Position numbers and translations under genes: made by a program. Positions 6,274-13,246 of a stretch of DNA of 37,661 bases are shown one piece after another. The DNA is from a virus (Duplodnaviria; Heunggongvirae; Uroviricota; Caudoviricetes). Within the stretch, counting starts at the first letter, position 1; each line of letters begins with the position of its first letter. Below the pieces are notes generated by a model that made no database searches, was not told the DNA's origin, and saw only the letters and a list, made by a program, of their open reading frames with translations. The DNA lies in IMG/VR virus record IMGVR_UViG_2526164599_000009, positions 1 through 37,661 of that record; one strand, written 5' to 3'.

Positions 6274-9096
6274 ATGACGGCAGAGTACATCAGGGACTGG
6301 CAACAACCGCGCCACGCAGTGGGGCGTGAAGGAACGGGGATCCCCGCTCCTGAATCCGCGCTTTCCTCCTGGCTGGATGCCTACCGGGTAGAGAACGAGC
6401 GCCGCCAGGAAATGGCTGATGCGGCGTTCTCCGCAACGCCGCTGGGCAACCTGATTAATAAAAGCCTGGACGCACAGGAAAAACAGGACAAAACCATCAC
6501 ACTGGCAGGAGACGCCAGAAAACAGGCACGCGGTGCGGTGGATGAAGCCATGGCCTCGCTGCGCCTGCTGCCGTCCTATCTGCGCGATCCGCTTATTCGC
6601 CACCTCTCCTTCCTGCGCAAAAAACAGGAAGCCGATCGTCAGAAAGGCAAAAAGAGCTGGCAGGCTGAACGCTACGCGCGCGGAAACCTGCGCAAAATAT
6701 TCGAACGTCTGGAGCGCACCGATCACCGCTGGCTGACACAGGGTTATCGCTCCCTTGCCGGACGCGAACGCCTGGACGATTTGCTTTACCTGCCGCAGCT
6801 CAACAAACACCAGATACAGACGCTGGCCACCATGACGGCGGCGATGTTCAGCAGCACCTTCGAAAAACTCTGCGATGGCTTTGGCGCGACCGATGGCGAA
6901 CTGACCATGGATGTAACGCTGAAGGCGTATCAGATGCTGGCCCGCATGGCGTTACACCTGCACGCCATGCCTCCACATTATGACGCACTGACAACAGACA
7001 AAGACCGGAGGAACGAACCGGACACGGAGCTGCTGCCGGGCGCAATCCTTCGCCTGACCTGTGCGGAATGGTGGAAACGCAAACTGTGGCTGTTACGTTG
7101 CGAGTGGAGAGAAGAACAACTCCGCGCCGCCTGTCTGGTTTCCAGAAAAACATCGCCCTATCTGAGCCAGGACGCGTTAAGCGAGTTTCGCGCACAGCGC
7201 GAGAAAACACGCGATTTCCTGAAAAGTTTCATGCTGGAAAACGAAGACGGGTTCACGATTGATCTCGAGACAGTGTATTACGCGGGAGTAAGTAACCCGG
7301 TTCACCGTAAGGCAGAAATGATGGCCACCATGAAGGGGCTGGAACTTCTGGCCGAAGCCCGTGGCGACAAAGCGGTGTTTCTGACTGTCACCTGCCCGTC
7401 AAAATACCACGCTACAACAGAGAACGGTCATCCGAATCCCAAATGGAACGGGGCCACCATGCGCGACTCCAGCGATTACCTGGTTAACACGTTTTTTGCG
7501 GCGGTCCGCAAGAAACTGAACCGCGACGGCCTGCGCTGGTATGGCATCCGCACGGTGGAGCCTCACCATGACGGCACCGTGCACTGGCATATGATGGTCT
7601 TTGCTCATCCGGAAGAAATCGACACCATTGTGTCCCACACCCGCGATATTGCCATTCAGGAAGATCGTCACGAGCTGGGCGATGATATTACTCCGCGCTT
7701 TAAGGCGGAGTATGTCGACGGCTCAAAAGGCACGCCAACCAGCTACATCGCCACCTACATCGGAAAAAACCTGGACAGCCGCGCCGTGGATGGCATCGAC
7801 CCGAAAACAGGCAAACCACGCGTTGACCACGAAACCGGAAAATCAATGACCGAGAGCGTGGAACGCGCCATTGGCTGGGCGCGCCTTCACCGGGTCCGCC
7901 AGTTCCAGTTCTTTGGCATCCCCTCCCGTCAGGTGTGGCGTGAACTGCGTCGCCTTGCCAGCCAGATGGCACGCAACCCGGAAGGCCCGCAACGGCTGAA
8001 GGATGACGCAATGGATGCGGTTCTTGCTGCCGCTGATGCCGGATGTTTTGCCACCTACATTGAGAAACAGGGCGGCGTACTTGTTCCACGCAAAGACTAC
8101 CTGATTCGCACCGCCTACGACCTCGCCGATGAGCTGAACGATTACGGCGAACAGAGCGTACAGATTTACGGGATCTGGTCACCACTCATCGGGGAATCCT
8201 CCCGTGTGTGCACGCATCCGGATAACTGGAAGCTGGTAAGACGCAAACCGGAAGCGGAAGACAGCGCCCGCGAAAATGGTTTTGACCTTCAGGGCGGCCC
8301 TGCCGCCCCTTGGACTCGTGGCAATAACTGTCCCCGTGTACAGGAAACAGACAACAACGGGACAGAACAGCCGGAAGAACGGCCAGCACCGTGGCCGCAG
8401 CTCCCTGACGGCGTTGAAGTGAACGAATGGATGCGCTCACTGAAACGGCACGAACGCCGGGCGCTGATGCGTTCGCTTCGTGACAAACAGGCAAAAAACA
8501 GCCGTGATGAAATGCAGAGCTGGACACAGAGCCGCAAACAGCAGCGGCCTTTGCCTGATAACCACGAATTACTCGCTAAAGAATGGCGGGAGTCTGCTGA
8601 ATCTCTCGGCCTGCATATCGGTGAACAGCAGATGCAGCACCTGTTACGGGGCGGCAGTCTGTACGTTGACGGCAGCATCATTGCACCGCAGGGATTTGAA
8701 ATTGTACGCAAACCGGATACCCGACCGGACAGCCGGATCACGCAGCTCTGGCAGCGCCTGAGCCGTAACCACGGCGTAAGCAGCACGGAGATCCGCCATA
8801 ACCCGGTCGCCAGCTATCTGGAACAGCTGGGGGCATCAGACCCCGAAGCCGCCGCACGCCTGGCATCCACACTTCAGCAAGACCAGAACACCATGAAAAC
8901 ACCCGTTACCGTGCTTTCTGACATGCTGCGCGCCATCCGCGACGCAGAGCACGCACAGAGAATCAGTGAAACCACTGAACGCGCCCACCGCAAAGCAGAC
9001 CTGCTGCGGGGTGGCCTGACCAGTGGAAACAAAAAACAGACAGAAACGGGATTCACAAATCCCGTAAATGAGCAAAAAACGCGCCGCGATATATGA
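6274..9096 (+). CDS. A: Rolling-circle replication initiator (P2 gpA-like, HUH endonuclease)
   Basis: 940-aa ORF; HUH-type motif HWHMMVF and tyrosine motif YIATYIGKNLD; position matches P2 A; about 180 aa longer than P2 A as recalled. Confidence 0.85.
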   Translation: MTAEYIRDWQQPRHAVGREGTGIPAPESALSSWLDAYRVENERRQEMADAAFSATPLGNLINKSLDAQEKQDKTITLAGDARKQARGAVDEAMASLRLLPSYLRDPLIRHLSFLRKKQEADRQKGKKSWQAERYARGNLRKIFERLERTDHRWLTQGYRSLAGRERLDDLLYLPQLNKHQIQTLATMTAAMFSSTFEKLCDGFGATDGELTMDVTLKAYQMLARMALHLHAMPPHYDALTTDKDRRNEPDTELLPGAILRLTCAEWWKRKLWLLRCEWREEQLRAACLVSRKTSPYLSQDALSEFRAQREKTRDFLKSFMLENEDGFTIDLETVYYAGVSNPVHRKAEMMATMKGLELLAEARGDKAVFLTVTCPSKYHATTENGHPNPKWNGATMRDSSDYLVNTFFAAVRKKLNRDGLRWYGIRTVEPHHDGTVHWHMMVFAHPEEIDTIVSHTRDIAIQEDRHELGDDITPRFKAEYVDGSKGTPTSYIATYIGKNLDSRAVDGIDPKTGKPRVDHETGKSMTESVERAIGWARLHRVRQFQFFGIPSRQVWRELRRLASQMARNPEGPQRLKDDAMDAVLAAADAGCFATYIEKQGGVLVPRKDYLIRTAYDLADELNDYGEQSVQIYGIWSPLIGESSRVCTHPDNWKLVRRKPEAEDSARENGFDLQGGPAAPWTRGNNCPRVQETDNNGTEQPEERPAPWPQLPDGVEVNEWMRSLKRHERRALMRSLRDKQAKNSRDEMQSWTQSRKQQRPLPDNHELLAKEWRESAESLGLHIGEQQMQHLLRGGSLYVDGSIIAPQGFEIVRKPDTRPDSRITQLWQRLSRNHGVSSTEIRHNPVASYLEQLGASDPEAAARLASTLQQDQNTMKTPVTVLSDMLRAIRDAEHAQRISETTERAHRKADLLRGGLTSGNKKQTETGFTNPVNEQKTRRDI

Positions 9097-9144
9097 AGCG
9101 CGCATAAAACAGGCAAAAACGGGATTTCAGAATCCCGTAAACGA
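9041..9144. repeat. Two copies of a palindrome-containing repeat (candidate parC-like centromere/operator)
   Basis: ACGGGATT-N6-AATCCCGT palindrome at 9046-9067 (inside the 3' end of A) and again at 9119-9140, 73 bp apart, just upstream of the parM-like start. Confidence 0.35.
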
Positions 9145-9172
9145 TTAATTAATCAACATAAGGAAAAGCGAC

Positions 9173-10132
9173 ATGAAAATTTGTATCGATGACGGCTCCA
9201 CCAACATCAAGCTGGCATGGACTGAGAACGGCGAACGCCGCAACGCCATCAGCCCGAACAGCTTCAAGTCGGAATGGTCTGCGCCGTTCGGTGGCACGCA
9301 GCCCGCGAACTACATGCTTGATGGCGTGCGCTATGGTTTTGATCCGGTCAGCGATCGCTTTGTCCAGACGACCGACACGCAATACCAGTACAGCGATGTG
9401 AATGTCATTGCCATTCATCACGCGCTGGTCAAATCAGGCATCACACCACAGGAAGTGGATGTGGTTGTCACCCTGCCACTGAGCGAATATTTCGACACAA
9501 ACGCACAGCCGGACATGCCCAACATCAACCGCAAAAAAGCGAACGTTATGCGCCCGGTGGAGTACCAGAACGGCGAAGCATTCACTATCCGTAACGTGCG
9601 GGTTATGCCTGAATCCATTCCGGCTGGCTTTAAGGCACTGGCTGACATGAGTCCGTTTGAATCCCTGCTGATTGTGGATTTGGGCGGAACCACGCTGGAT
9701 GTGGCAAAGGTTCAGGGGCAACTGGCAGGTATCAGCCAGGTGTTTTGCGACCCACACGTAGGCGTTTCTCTGATGGCCGATGCCGTACTGTCGGTGATGG
9801 CCACTAACGGTATGCGCACCAGTCACCACATCGCCAATACCATTATCGAACATCGCCATGATGAAGCCTGGCTGCGCCAGCACATCCACAATGACGCGCA
9901 TTACGCCAGCCTGATGGCGGTTATTCGTGAAAAGGAAGAAACACTGAAACAACGCGTGATCCGCGCGCTGGCGGGTTTTTCGGGTTACGGGCGGGTGATG
10001 GTTGTCGGTGGCGGGGCGGAGATTGTGGCACCCGCTATCCGCGAAGCCTGCGGAGTTAATGCGACTTTCATCGCGGACGGGGTGCCACAGTTTGCTCTGG
10101 TTAATGGGCTGTACGCAATGGACAAGGAGTAA
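9173..10132 (+). CDS. parM: ParM/StbA-family actin-like segregation ATPase
   Basis: 319-aa ORF; MKICIDDGSTNIKLAW, SDVNVIAIHHAL, VMPESIPAG, LIVDLGGTTLD and MVVGGGAE match the plasmid R1 ParM signature as recalled. Confidence 0.85.
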   Translation: MKICIDDGSTNIKLAWTENGERRNAISPNSFKSEWSAPFGGTQPANYMLDGVRYGFDPVSDRFVQTTDTQYQYSDVNVIAIHHALVKSGITPQEVDVVVTLPLSEYFDTNAQPDMPNINRKKANVMRPVEYQNGEAFTIRNVRVMPESIPAGFKALADMSPFESLLIVDLGGTTLDVAKVQGQLAGISQVFCDPHVGVSLMADAVLSVMATNGMRTSHHIANTIIEHRHDEAWLRQHIHNDAHYASLMAVIREKEETLKQRVIRALAGFSGYGRVMVVGGGAEIVAPAIREACGVNATFIADGVPQFALVNGLYAMDKE

Positions 10133-10136
10133 ACCA

Positions 10137-10448
10137 ATGACGACACCAACCAGACGAATAAGTTTCTATCTGAAGCCCGCCGCCGTCAAGAACGAAGGCG
10201 AAGCATGCGCCTGGCTGGACAGCCTTACACCAGAAGCCCGCAAAAGCGGCCAACGTGTGGCTTTTCTGGCCGGGCTGGCACTTCTGAAAATGAATCCGGC
10301 AGAGGCTTACCGACTGGCTGCATGGGCTGATGATGAAGCGTTATCAGTGACACAAACCAGGACAGAACGCCCCGCATCACAGCCAGTATCAACCGCACAG
10401 ATAACCAGTCAGATGGCCGGAAATATCCGGGCGTTATTTCCCGAATAA
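10137..10448 (+). CDS. parR: ParR-like centromere-binding adaptor (putative)
   Basis: ATG 10137 after RBS AGGAG; RRISFYLKP...LDSLTPEARKSGQRVAFLAGLALL...IRALFPE parallels R1 ParR as recalled; directly downstream of parM. Confidence 0.65.
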   Translation: MTTPTRRISFYLKPAAVKNEGEACAWLDSLTPEARKSGQRVAFLAGLALLKMNPAEAYRLAAWADDEALSVTQTRTERPASQPVSTAQITSQMAGNIRALFPE

Positions 10449-10511
10449 TACAACATCAGGGCGCATCCGCCCTGATGACTTTAATCCGGGAACACAAACA
10501 AAGGGGACACA

Positions 10512-10844
10512 ATGCAACACATTGACAGAGAAAAAGCGCAGCGACTGATTGAGCGGATGGAAGCGCTGGCGAAAGAAGAAAATGTCAACATCCAAAAAAT
10601 AGCTGAATGTGGCCAGATAGTTCTTCGTCGTGAAAAAGACCTCAAACAACTGATGTCTGGCGAAACCAGCAAAACATGGACTTCAGGCGAGGAAACGATT
10701 TATTGCAGCTTCTGCAATAAATCCCAGTACGAAGTCACAAAGGTGATTGCTGGACCGTCTGTTTACATCTGCAATGAGTGCGTGGATTTGTGCAATGAAA
10801 TTATCAGGAGAGAAGTGGCAGACAAAAAGGGAAAAAACACATGA
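10512..10844 (+). CDS. Small protein with ClpX-type C4 zinc-binding domain
   Basis: [38 protein letters not shown] is near-identical in pattern to the ClpX N-terminal zinc finger; about 65-aa helical N-terminal region; no AAA+ module. Confidence 0.75.
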
Positions 10845-11155
10845 ACAGAAAACAAAAACAAGAGTTGAAATACTTTTTACGTAAAGAAATTGCCAGGCTT
10901 GAAGATGCAGAATCACGATCATCAGAAATTCCGTTCGGAATGGATATCAACGACGCCCGTATGCTCCAGGCATACCGTATAGCTCAGGCTGTACTACAGG
11001 CAAAACCGTCAGATGGACTGGTTAGAGCAGTACGTTTCTATGAACTGGTAAAACGTGAGAATCCGCCAACCGAAACCGGAGCATGGAAAGACGCTGTTGA
11101 CTGGGTGCTCAAAGAGGCTTGCCAAGCTGTAAACATTGACATCAAAGGAGAGTGA
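10841..11155 (+). CDS. Hypothetical protein
   Basis: 104-aa ORF overlapping the upstream stop by 4 bp. Confidence 0.5.
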
Positions 11156-11156
11156 T

Positions 11157-11444
11157 ATGGCAACTTTGCAGGAATTAATCGACCTGACGCCAGAACAGGA
11201 AAAAGCGTGGAATCGCCTTGTGAAGGCTGTAAAGGATTTCAGGGCAGCCGGAGGAAAGTTTTATAGCGTCCTGGACACGCTGAGCGCATACAACGGCGAG
11301 CACGTTGCCAGCATTGATAACGATAAGGGCTACCACACTGCAAGCGTTTATATGCCTAGCATTGATGCGCCAGGGCTAACCAGTTGGGCTGATGATTGGC
11401 ACGGCATCACGCTGAAAGATGGCGTTGAAGTGGATGAGGACTAA
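11157..11444 (+). CDS. Hypothetical acidic protein
   Basis: ATG 11157 after RBS AAAGGAG. Confidence 0.5.
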   Translation: MATLQELIDLTPEQEKAWNRLVKAVKDFRAAGGKFYSVLDTLSAYNGEHVASIDNDKGYHTASVYMPSIDAPGLTSWADDWHGITLKDGVEVDED

Positions 11445-11447
11445 CAC

Positions 11448-11708
11448 ATGACAACTTTCACCGACAAAGAACTGATTAAAGAAATCAAAGAGCGCATAGG
11501 CAGCTTGGACGTTCGAGACAATATTGAGCGCCGTGCTTATGAAATTGCACTGGCATCACTGGAAGCAGAGCCAGTAGCATGGATGCATGTAAATAACGGC
11601 ATCGGAATACCAGCAATAACAAGGAGTAAAGAGGTTGCAGAGAGTTGGTTATCAAAAGGCTGGTATGTCCAACCCTTGCATCTGGCCCAGCCTGCATCAA
11701 AGCTATAG
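11448..11708 (+). CDS. Hypothetical protein
   Basis: 86-aa ORF 3 bp after previous stop; last gene of the operon. Confidence 0.5.
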   Translation: MTTFTDKELIKEIKERIGSLDVRDNIERRAYEIALASLEAEPVAWMHVNNGIGIPAITRSKEVAESWLSKGWYVQPLHLAQPASKL

Positions 11709-11717
11709 AAATAAGCC

Positions 11718-11746
11718 AAAACGCCCTCTTCCTGGGCGTTTATTTT
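11718..11746 (+). terminator. Intrinsic terminator ending the accessory operon
   Basis: stem AACGCCC / GGGCGTT (11720-11740) with 7-nt loop, followed by TATTTT. Confidence 0.55.
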
Positions 11747-11748
11747 AA

Positions 11749-11847
11749 TGCACAATAGTGCACAAATTTGCACAATTTTTTTGAACGACTTTTTACCCTT
11801 CCGACCCCCGTGGCGGCTGGATCCGTCAAGGATCCGTGCGTGCACAA
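11749..11847. repeat. Phased TGCACAA heptamer repeats in the predicted cos-proximal region
   Basis: TGCACAA at 11749, 11759 and 11769 (exact 10-bp phasing), fourth copy at 11841; GGATCCGT direct repeat at 11819-11838. Confidence 0.3.
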
Positions 11848-12148
11848 AAAAACGCGTTTTTTCTGCGCGCAGGTGACGGGGGAACAGCCCGCGTTTCAGG
11901 GGGTAAATAGCGTTCCCTTAACGATGTCGCAGCGACACGACAGAATGGCCGTATTTCTCACGCTGAGCGTGAAAAATACGTGAGGGATTCTGGTTTGATG
12001 GGGTGAAAGGTAAGGCCGTCAAAATCGCACTGAGGCGGCGAGAACATGCAGTCAGCGCAGTGGGATTGCGTAAGAGTCTGACCGTCGATGATGGCAATAA
12101 GCAGGAAAGCGTCGTGAAATTATCTGACTGATACAGGAGCTGGAGAGT

Positions 12149-12173
12149 CGGGGCATAAATTTTTTATGCCCCG
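12149..12173 (-). terminator. Hairpin downstream of the portal gene (candidate terminator)
   Basis: inverted repeat CGGGGCATAAA / TTTATGCCCCG just 3' of the minus-strand Q stop; no clear U-tract. Confidence 0.3.
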
Positions 12174-12199
12174 GCGAAGCAGCAGACAAGCGAAGCGCG

Positions 12200-13246
12200 T
12201 CAGGATGTGGGCTGGGTATCTAACAGTGCGTAAGGGTTAAAGCGGATCACCTCTTCGCCAAGCCAGTCATTGATATGCTTCATGGCCTCCATGACGGGCA
12301 TCAGCTCGTTAATTGCGTAAACCCGCGCGGCCTTCTCCACATCACCAAACGCACTTTTTTCGCCCGGCATCGCCCCCATCAGTTGCGGCGGAACGCGGTG
12401 CGCAGCCAGCACATCATCACGGGATGCCGCCTTAACATTCATGAACTCATCTTTTGCGGTGATCTGCTGGAACGGCAAAATTTGCACCCCCTCTTTGCCC
12501 CCGTTGGGCGCATGAATGAGCACGTTTTTAAACGCACCACCACCACGTGCCCCCTGTAGCGTTTCTTTCAGGGAGTCCATGCTTTCGCGGTTTACCTGCG
12601 CTGCACCGATGTAGATGATGCACCCGGCGTGGGATCCGTTGTCGTAGTACAGTTTTCTGAACATGTCCGCCGAATGAGAAAGGCTGGCCGAGAGTAATGC
12701 GCCAAGATATTCCGGCATGCCGTAAATTTCCTGGTTAATGTCCGGATTCATCAGGTGGCACACTTTGCCAGGGCGAAACTGAAACGCGTCCTTGCCATCC
12801 TGCACATACCACCATGATTCAAGATCGCTTCCGCGTCGCACGTATTTCGCCAGTGCGTGCCGTAATTTAAGTGGTTCGCCGAGCATATTACTCCGAAGCT
12901 CAAGGAATGCGTTACCGAACACAAACCAGTCCAGCGCCAGCGCCGAGAAATCCTGCCGGGAAAGCAGCGGGTGCGGGATGTAGCAACCGAGCAATACATT
13001 GCGCTTAAAGTAAAGCGCAGACTGATGCCAGGACGTTTGCCGGGCGGCTCTTGCCAGACCGTACCAGTCCACCGGGGTTTCATACCACCGCCCGTTATCA
13101 GCACAGTACATATTGTCCAGCAGGTCATGCCCGGTCAGGCGATAAGGACCATCAAATGTGAATGCACTGAGCGATGATTCTTTCCTGAGCGCATCAGCGA
13201 GATCAATGCGTGAACTCATGCGCACTTTTTTATTTTTTCTGCTCAT
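12200..13246 (-). CDS. Q: Portal protein (P2 gpQ-like)
   Basis: 348-aa ORF, size and position as P2 Q; downstream of and overlapping the terminase large subunit gene. Confidence 0.85.
   Translation of the reverse strand: MSRKNKKVRMSSRIDLADALRKESSLSAFTFDGPYRLTGHDLLDNMYCADNGRWYETPVDWYGLARAARQTSWHQSALYFKRNVLLGCYIPHPLLSRQDFSALALDWFVFGNAFLELRSNMLGEPLKLRHALAKYVRRGSDLESWWYVQDGKDAFQFRPGKVCHLMNPDINQEIYGMPEYLGALLSASLSHSADMFRKLYYDNGSHAGCIIYIGAAQVNRESMDSLKETLQGARGGGAFKNVLIHAPNGGKEGVQILPFQQITAKDEFMNVKAASRDDVLAAHRVPPQLMGAMPGEKSAFGDVEKAARVYAINELMPVMEAMKHINDWLGEEVIRFNPYALLDTQPTS

Follow-up and report, generated by a model that had tools for sequence, protein, structure and literature searches.

The window analysed here is the whole 37,661-nucleotide stretch of the IMG/VR virus record IMGVR_UViG_2526164599_000009 (Duplodnaviria; Heunggongvirae; Uroviricota; Caudoviricetes), which is a P88-like prophage of Escherichia coli (Xuanwuvirus, Peduoviridae, P2-like). 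Between the genes for the replication endonuclease (gpA) and for the portal protein (gpQ), it carries a small gene whose 110-aa product joins an N-terminal helical hairpin to a zinc-binding domain (ZBD) of the ClpX type. The protein may act as a selective decoy for adaptors and substrates that dock on this domain of ClpX. The positions of the described features are collected in Table 1.

Zinc-binding domain and N-terminal hairpin of the 110-aa protein

The coding sequence begins with an ATG preceded by the Shine-Dalgarno sequence GGGGA (10503-10507), and its TGA stop shares the tetranucleotide ATGA (10841-10844) with the ATG of the next open reading frame (ORF). The PHROG search gave a full-length match to phrog_6797, and gp19 of Escherichia phage P88 is 98% identical to the protein. 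An earlier sequence-only reading of this DNA had regarded the protein as phage-encoded, and both the P88 homologue and the P88-like prophage in the window agree with it. In RefSeq/PGAP, the gene is named "ClpX C4-type zinc finger protein". The label "carboxylate--amine ligase", which numerous GenBank and nr entries bear (P88 gp19, D6 orf93, nr clusters P0001-P0014), is a propagated misannotation that no profile search backs.

The same reading had assigned a ClpX zinc domain to the protein, proposed an alignment to the Pfam model as a check and named a cysteine spacing different from that of ClpX as grounds for dropping the assignment. The alignment to PF06689 (zf-C4_ClpX) covers residues 64-99 and profile positions 2-38/39 with a score of 64.5 bits (E = 8.2e-18), at a gathering cutoff of 27 bits. 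The four zinc ligands C65, C68, C87 and C90 align with the ClpX cysteines in the ClpX spacing, CxxC-x18-CxxC, and are invariant in the 12-sequence family alignment. Only the boundaries needed correction, as the domain had been placed at residues "about 74-110", some ten residues off; the peptide quoted there is Y64-E101. In several P88-type IMG/VR copies (L019, L022, L025, L027 and L028), a Y85C replacement (PSVCICNEC) places an additional, fifth cysteine next to the third zinc ligand.

The phmmer search against PDB sequences returned ClpX entries only, the top matches being the isolated E. coli ZBD structures 1OVX and 2DS5-2DS8 (E ~1e-19). In an AlphaFold2 monomer model built from a 27-sequence alignment, the ZBD has pLDDT values of 87-94 and ends in a predicted long C-terminal helix. 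Superposed by Foldseek on the crystal structures 2DS5, 2DS6, 2DS7 and 2DS8, the model gave rmsd values of 0.5-0.8 Å and target TM-scores of 0.86-0.91. Over the ZBD core, 31 of the 38 residues are identical to those of E. coli K-12 ClpX. The seven replacements (G-to-N, H-to-Y, R-to-T, L-to-V, D-to-N, D-to-E and E-to-R) are mostly polar, with one conservative L-to-V, and the hydrophobic core residues are the same. Moreover, in the alignment, F16 and I46 of the ClpX ligand pocket correspond to F67 and I97 of the phage protein.

The ClpX equivalogs of NCBIfam, TIGR00382 and NF003745, scored 49.9 and 48.6 bits over model positions 3-52 only, far under their cutoffs of 370.75 and 359. The ORF ends at residue 110 and the AAA+ module (Walker A/B, pore loops, IGF loop) is absent, just as the sequence-only reading had stated. 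At the domain level, the 110-aa protein truly belongs to PF06689, without being a ClpX.

That reading missed the remainder of the protein. In the model, the N-terminal hairpin has pLDDT values of 85-91 over blocks 11-40, while linker residues 53-59 fall below 50 and are predicted to be disordered. The pTM of 0.40 implies no fixed arrangement of the hairpin and the ZBD. Across the family, the linker varies freely in length and sequence, with insertions, deletions and low identity. The amphipathic pattern of the hairpin is retained, and E23 and C33 hardly vary. When residues 1-59 were searched with phmmer, 1.84 billion representative proteins yielded no more than 12 matches, essentially the family itself. 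Eleven of them are short (29-119 aa); the five inspected are members of the family or fragments of members, the intact ones with a C-terminal ZBD. The remaining match, to a 1,212-aa protein, is split over six stretches. The family profile of the hairpin found nothing below E = 0.07 among PDB sequences. The architecture of an orphan hairpin, a disordered linker and a ZBD is newly described here. The conserved hairpin must contribute to function, most likely either by letting the protein self-associate, with a gain in avidity, or by binding to a further, specific partner.

Superficially, a hairpin combined with a C4 zinc finger is reminiscent of DksA/TraR, the small regulators found in temperate phages and plasmids. 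The order of elements in the model (hairpin, C4 zinc finger, C-terminal helix) and the acidic turn at the hairpin tip (E22-E23-N24) would suit a DksA/TraR-like protein binding in the secondary channel of RNA polymerase. Such a function is nevertheless highly improbable. The family zf-dskA_traR (PF01258) did not match even at E <= 1, and the significant Foldseek matches in PDB are all ClpX ZBDs, with no DksA, TraR or Gre factor in the top 50. Moreover, the modelled hairpin is short (18 + 22 residues) and is followed by a disordered linker of 14 residues before the zinc domain, and its tip lacks DxxDxA, the tip motif of the DksA/TraR type. A regulator of this kind was rejected for want of a Pfam or structural match.

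Selection, origin and distribution of the family

The ZBD is the most constrained part of the protein. Between the branches of the family, identity amounts to 68-84% in the ZBD against 26-42% in the hairpin, and within the family the ZBD has dN/dS values of 0.08-0.33, so that the ClpX consensus is kept under purifying selection. Compared with E. coli clpX, 76 of the 114 nucleotides are the same, and the third codon position agrees in 12 of the 31 conserved codons; pS is ~1.0 (saturated) and pN 0.16. Saturated synonymous sites together with a low pN indicate that the ClpX-like sequence is maintained by selection and was not captured recently from E. coli clpX. Recent capture was rejected also because blastn of the ZBD gene against 5,426 E. 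coli genomes did not pick up clpX. The ZBDs of many bacterial ClpX proteins are identical to the phage ZBD at 28-32 of the 38 positions, a range that includes E. coli. The likeness is therefore to ClpX in general, and mimicry of a specific host is not supported.

Truncated, frameshifted or fused copies do occur (P0010, P0018, L043, L066, L074 and L076), as would be expected of a decaying, functionless fragment of a captured clpX. Several observations make this origin scarcely credible: intact two-domain copies persist in the same slot from 100% down to 31% identity, dN/dS stays below 0.35, the gene has a good Shine-Dalgarno sequence and translational coupling, the N-terminal domain is not derived from ClpX and the DNA has no detectable similarity to clpX. 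In the D6-type copies L074 and L076, the frame is shifted or fused past the third cysteine into ORFs of 235-282 aa, with the ZBD apparently disrupted.

The full-length family comprises ~20 clusters from E. coli, E. albertii and Salmonella. Near-full-length copies were found in 112 of 5,426 complete E. coli genomes (~2%), in P88-like prophages, with 94-99% DNA identity among the matches listed. A diverged branch occurs at ~105 plasmid places, the listed records of which measure 90-113 kb, within the size range of D6-like phage-plasmids. A relative is encoded on 405 IMG/VR viral contigs, and the loci described here come from the best 80 of these 405. The family is confined to enterobacterial phages, where it occupies the P2-like slot and, as a second branch, D6/P1-like phage-plasmids.

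In the contexts compared, the ZBD gene always lies just downstream of gpA and in the same orientation. Members with 31-41% identity (L073, L075 and L086) are located between Phage_GPA and Phage_portal genes without ParM, and the gpA-portal slot is likewise occupied, again without ParM, by the version of Salmonella and by another one of E. coli. No similarity was detected between the downstream ORF of the window and the neighbours in L008 and D6, and the Salmonella versions lack Ea22-like neighbours. As the neighbours differ in every context (P88-like, other E. coli, Salmonella and D6), the gene has no conserved phage partner and does not belong to the partition cassette; a conserved partner gene or operon was rejected. 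The same applies to a third component of ParMR, since the homologues L005-L008, L073, L075 and L086 occur without ParM. ParMR is also by far the commoner of the two, the 3.2-kb region being found in ~2,393 and the ZBD in 112 of the 5,426 E. coli genomes.

Small or non-ClpX ZBD proteins were found in unrelated phages as well: a 41-aa coding sequence of Cr30, a 65-aa protein of Pseudomonas phage PP9W2, and L088 and L091. Caulobacter phage Cr30 infects C. crescentus and has a 156-kb genome; its ZBD match (L010, 1594-1719) overlaps gp170, the annotated 41-aa coding sequence. L088 (2872-3237) encodes a 121-aa protein with a C-terminal extension of the ZBD, and L091 (2899-3129) a 77-aa protein of one helix plus the ZBD, directly 3' of a 186-CII-like (Phage_CP76) gene. 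In the 303-aa protein of L084 (2314-3225), the ZBD occupies residues 237-272, and the long N-terminal part that precedes it is unannotated. A separate family of standalone ZBD proteins, mostly of 136 aa (P0026, P0032, P0044 and others), comes from metagenomes and genomes, and its C-terminal tail, RGVSWARIGEALGMTRQSAWERFSGEE, looks like a helix-turn-helix.

The hotspot between gpA and gpQ

Table 1. Features of the gpA-gpQ region, with positions in the window and the evidence for each.
Feature	Position	Strand	Basis
gpA replication endonuclease, upstream hotspot boundary	6274..9096	+	Pfam Phage_GPA (E 1.9e-131), P88 annotation
Partition cassette: ParM (9173-10132) and ParR-like protein (~10137-10448)	9173..10448	+	Pfam StbA_N, ParM_N, Plasmid_stab_B
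GC-rich hairpin with a perfect 10-bp stem, within the 63 nt that separate the parR stop from the start of the ZBD gene	10454..10477	.	Folding and inverted repeat I7
Coding sequence of the standalone ClpX-ZBD protein, 110 aa	10512..10844 (with stop codon)	+	ORF list and translation
N-terminal helical hairpin, residues 6-48 (helices 6-23 and 27-48), orphan domain	10527..10655	+	AlphaFold2 model
Flexible linker, residues 49-63	10656..10700	+	Model and family alignment
ClpX-type C4 ZBD, residues 64-101	10701..10814	+	Pfam PF06689, PDB sequence matches, Foldseek
Codons of the ZBD cysteines	10704-10706, 10713-10715, 10770-10772, 10779-10781	+	
Three small early accessory ORFs	10841-11155, ~11157-11444, 11448-11708	+	PHROG phrog_660, 26213, 2821, 5117
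Hairpin flagged as terminator-like on both strands, at the end of the rightward operon	11719..11741	.	
Portal protein gpQ, downstream hotspot boundary	12200..13246	-	ORF; P88 and UTI89 annotation

The gpA-gpQ region of P2-like phages is a hotspot rich in defence and accessory genes (Rousset et al. 2022, PMC9122126). Part of Table S5A of that study lists arrangements of the form 'StbA + Plasmid_stab_B + zf-C4_ClpX + hypothetical...', and in this part 'StbA' is mentioned 489 times and 'ClpX' 43 times. Together with the RefSeq name, this entry means that the domain in this gene was already on record; the gene is not among the systems whose cloning and testing the study describes. About a quarter of P2-like phages carry ParMR, and they may be maintainable as plasmids (PMC9122126). 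No family of PADLOC-DB v2 matched the ZBD protein at E <= 0.1, and a known defence system was therefore rejected. Among the four neighbours searched, only the first downstream ORF gave a match, a marginal one of 13.8 bits.

The gpA protein of the window has 940 aa, of which only residues 179-503 match Phage_GPA; its C-terminal extension of ~440 residues has no confident domain. In related ZBD-bearing prophages, gpA measures 719-838 aa. A 42-nt element occurs in two copies (9030-9071 and 9103-9144) that are 81% identical, are spaced 73 bp apart and both contain the palindrome ACGGGATT-N4-AATCCCGT (9046-9065 and 9119-9138). Straddling the gpA stop, 5' of parM, they may serve the ParR-like protein as its parC centromere/operator.

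The segment 10440-10515, which holds the hairpin upstream of the ZBD gene, folds with -23.6 kcal/mol (z = -4.3). This hairpin is terminator-like solely on the minus strand, where there is no obvious transcription, and it is a candidate attenuator or RNA end. Downstream, ORF 10841-11155 is translationally coupled to the ZBD gene through the ATGA overlap, and two of the three accessory ORFs match PHROGs whose families are linked by reciprocal matches (phrog_660). UTI89 (L002, 5159-5650), O145 strains and other top matches have an extra 492-nt gene of an 'XF1762 family protein' between the first and second downstream ORFs. Its absence from the window (~11155-11157) explains why these matches cover 91% in two pieces.

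Possible role as a docking decoy and comparison with known systems

The ZBD of ClpX dimerises independently (PMC5415555; crosslinked dimers in PMC7226468) and serves as a docking platform for adaptors. Purified ClpX ZBD added in trans inhibits the RssB-mediated breakdown of sigma-S by ClpXP (PMC7226468, Fig. 1d). The degradation of lambda O requires the ZBD, and the hydrophobic region around F16/I46 of ClpX overlaps the lambda O site and is common to SspB, RssB and trigger factor (PMC7804408). As ClpX without the ZBD degrades ssrA-type C-terminal degrons normally (PMC7226468), a free ZBD would affect ZBD-dependent clients only. For the same reason, the suggestion of the sequence-only reading that the protein could protect phage proteins from ClpXP had to be narrowed.

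On these grounds, we put at roughly 45% the probability that the protein is a decoy which selectively engages adaptors and substrates dependent on the ZBD and does not inhibit ClpXP as a whole. The phage ZBD would present a ClpX-like hydrophobic docking pocket with no unfoldase attached and would compete with ClpX for clients that must first dock on the ZBD, such as the adaptors SspB and RssB or N-domain-dependent substrates like lambda O, MuA and FtsZ. Their ZBD-dependent degradation or remodelling by ClpXP would be selectively slowed. Degrons recognised by the pore, such as ssrA, would be unaffected, and CmdA-like antitoxins, with their ssrA-like AA tails, would remain unprotected. The retention of F16/I46 as F67/I97, the mostly polar changes elsewhere and the precedent of the ZBD acting in trans make a competitive decoy the best supported explanation. 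A decoy that titrates adaptors had been one suggestion of the sequence-only reading, and it is a plausible one. The phage ZBD presumably dimerises as that of ClpX does; its dimerisation, ligand binding, competition, expression timing and relevant client are what we infer here.

Several points weigh against this interpretation. The inhibition in trans was obtained with 5-20 µM ZBD against 0.6 µM ClpXP, roughly a 10-30-fold excess (PMC7226468), so that a plain decoy may be weak in vivo. A pure decoy leaves the conserved N-terminal domain unexplained. ClpX ZBDs are highly conserved everywhere, and the likeness, not being host-specific, could reflect the constraints of the fold or the dimer alone; the 136-aa family points to a reuse of the ZBD outside ClpX in cells, and zf-C4_ClpX is also mentioned in a paper on the domain architecture of cyanobacterial sigma factors. 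The D6-type branch is altered at positions equivalent to P31, S32, Y34 and L42 of ClpX, which hints at an altered specificity. A crude scan of 9000-12300 found no sigma-70-like promoter; with no promoter-like site of its own and lying co-oriented 3' of gpA and parMR, the gene is probably expressed from the rightward early/partition unit. Finally, full-text literature searches, in a collection with few subscription-journal papers, found no work on the function of a ZBD protein that is phage-encoded or stands alone, and no binding, dimerisation or degradation results for this protein or any homologue.

The large molar excess needed makes self-association of the hairpin, and the resulting avidity, an attractive addition. 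In a tentative and rather doubtful extension, a self-associating hairpin could display several ZBD dimers and thereby out-compete the ClpX hexamer. The protein would then be the first natural case of viral mimicry of the docking platform of an AAA+ unfoldase and would reprogramme ClpXP selectively during the development of P2- and D6-like phages, with the same trick reused by unrelated phages that carry a mini-ZBD. Were this correct, a phage early or replication protein or, in lysogens, sigma-S could be stabilised, or ClpX-dependent phages such as Mu excluded.

The hairpin could also be brought to ClpX itself, if the phage ZBD formed heterodimers with the ZBD of host ClpX, for example during assembly. 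It would then be planted on the unfoldase, where it might recruit a new client, as an adaptor made by domain swap, or block the entry pore, as a broad inhibitor. The ability of ClpX ZBDs to dimerise alone (PMC5415555, PMC7226468) and the unchanged hydrophobic core residues are compatible with such a partnership, and a conserved second domain on a flexible linker suits a tether with an effector better than a bare decoy. We nonetheless regard this mechanism as decidedly improbable. Within the hexamer, the ZBDs of ClpX are held side by side and should dimerise constitutively, at a very high local concentration, so that a free monomer would compete poorly and heterodimerisation, the option that the sequence-only reading had named first, is the less likely route. 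Moreover, the mostly-ZBD ORFs of other phages are much shorter (41 aa in Cr30, 65 aa in PP9W2).

An explanation unrelated to ClpXP, in which the ZBD is merely a compact zinc-stabilised dimerisation module and the hairpin binds the true phage or host target (in early development, replication or phage exclusion), appears unlikely to us. The N-terminal domain is conserved and specific to the family, the gene occupies a fixed slot 3' of gpA in a defence/accessory hotspot (PMC9122126), ZBDs occur joined to other modules in proteins of cells and viruses, and a domain conserved across all bacteria may simply tolerate little change. However, it is the ZBD and not the N-terminal domain that is the most constrained, the ligand-pocket residues F67 and I97 are retained, and the searches found no PADLOC match, no conserved partner and no DNA-binding or enzymatic domain.

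If the protein is a selective docking decoy, three roles would fit the data. As the gene lies co-oriented just 3' of gpA, the decoy might protect a phage early or replication protein. As the slot is a defence hotspot, it might exclude phages that need ClpX, such as Mu, whose MuA transpososome is remodelled by ClpX for replication (PMC3562280). It might also bring about lysogenic conversion through stabilisation of sigma-S, in the manner of anti-adaptors. ClpXP controls a number of decisions relevant to phages: the turnover of lambda O, the remodelling of the Mu transpososome, sigma-S levels, the alleviation of restriction and the activation of some toxin-antitoxin defences. The SOS response depends on ClpXP as well. 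No report of a phage factor aimed at the substrate-selection domain of ClpX was found in the full-text literature. A docking decoy would thus be a natural selective tool for splitting N-domain-dependent from pore-dependent functions of ClpXP, and a new example of viral mimicry by excision of a single host domain. With ~2% of complete E. coli genomes and roughly 100 plasmid records as carriers, the stress physiology of pathogenic lineages (O145, UTI89) may be affected.

Among known proteins, the closest counterpart is the N-domain of E. coli ClpX (1OVX, 2DS5-2DS8), with which the phage ZBD shares the C4 motif, the length, the predicted fold of beta-hairpins with a C-terminal helix, 31 of 38 residues and F16/I46. 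It differs in having no AAA+ module, in being preceded by other sequence (the orphan hairpin) rather than followed by it, and in DNA that is unrelated at synonymous sites. The recombinant isolated ClpX ZBD used as a competitor is likewise free and motorless and provides the direct precedent for a decoy (PMC7226468). In contrast to this laboratory construct, which needs a large excess, the phage protein is natural, and its additional conserved domain might increase avidity or confer specificity. The enterobacterial anti-adaptors IraD, IraM and IraP are also small and stabilise a ClpXP client by hindering its delivery by the adaptor, and the proposed docking site of the ZBD on RssB overlaps that of IraD (PMC7226468). 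However, the Ira proteins bind RssB through folds of their own and not through a copy of a ClpX domain, and our searches revealed no relation to them in sequence or fold.

Phage genes that rewire host AAA+ proteolysis are known in other forms. T4 PinA and T7 Gp4.5 are phage inhibitors of Lon, with folds unrelated to the ZBD protein. Jumbo phages encode ClpS adaptors and full ClpX and ClpP (PMC7824862), and gp257 and gp258 of phage G are homologues of the ClpX/ClpP type. These jumbo-phage genes specify complete enzymes or adaptors, whereas the phage ZBD protein is an excised docking domain. Its slot is shared with other cargo of the P2 gpA-gpQ hotspot, such as old, tin, retrons and ParMR; unlike most of this cargo, the ZBD family persists there across deep divergence.

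The recurrence of ZBD proteins in unrelated phages suggests a general strategy, of which Cr30 is a possible independent instance. Caulobacter relies heavily on adaptors that dock on the ZBD. The binding of CpdR to the ZBD is mentioned in PMC7804408. In comparison with these systems, the domain and its annotation were already known, and what is new is the two-domain architecture and its phage-restricted distribution.

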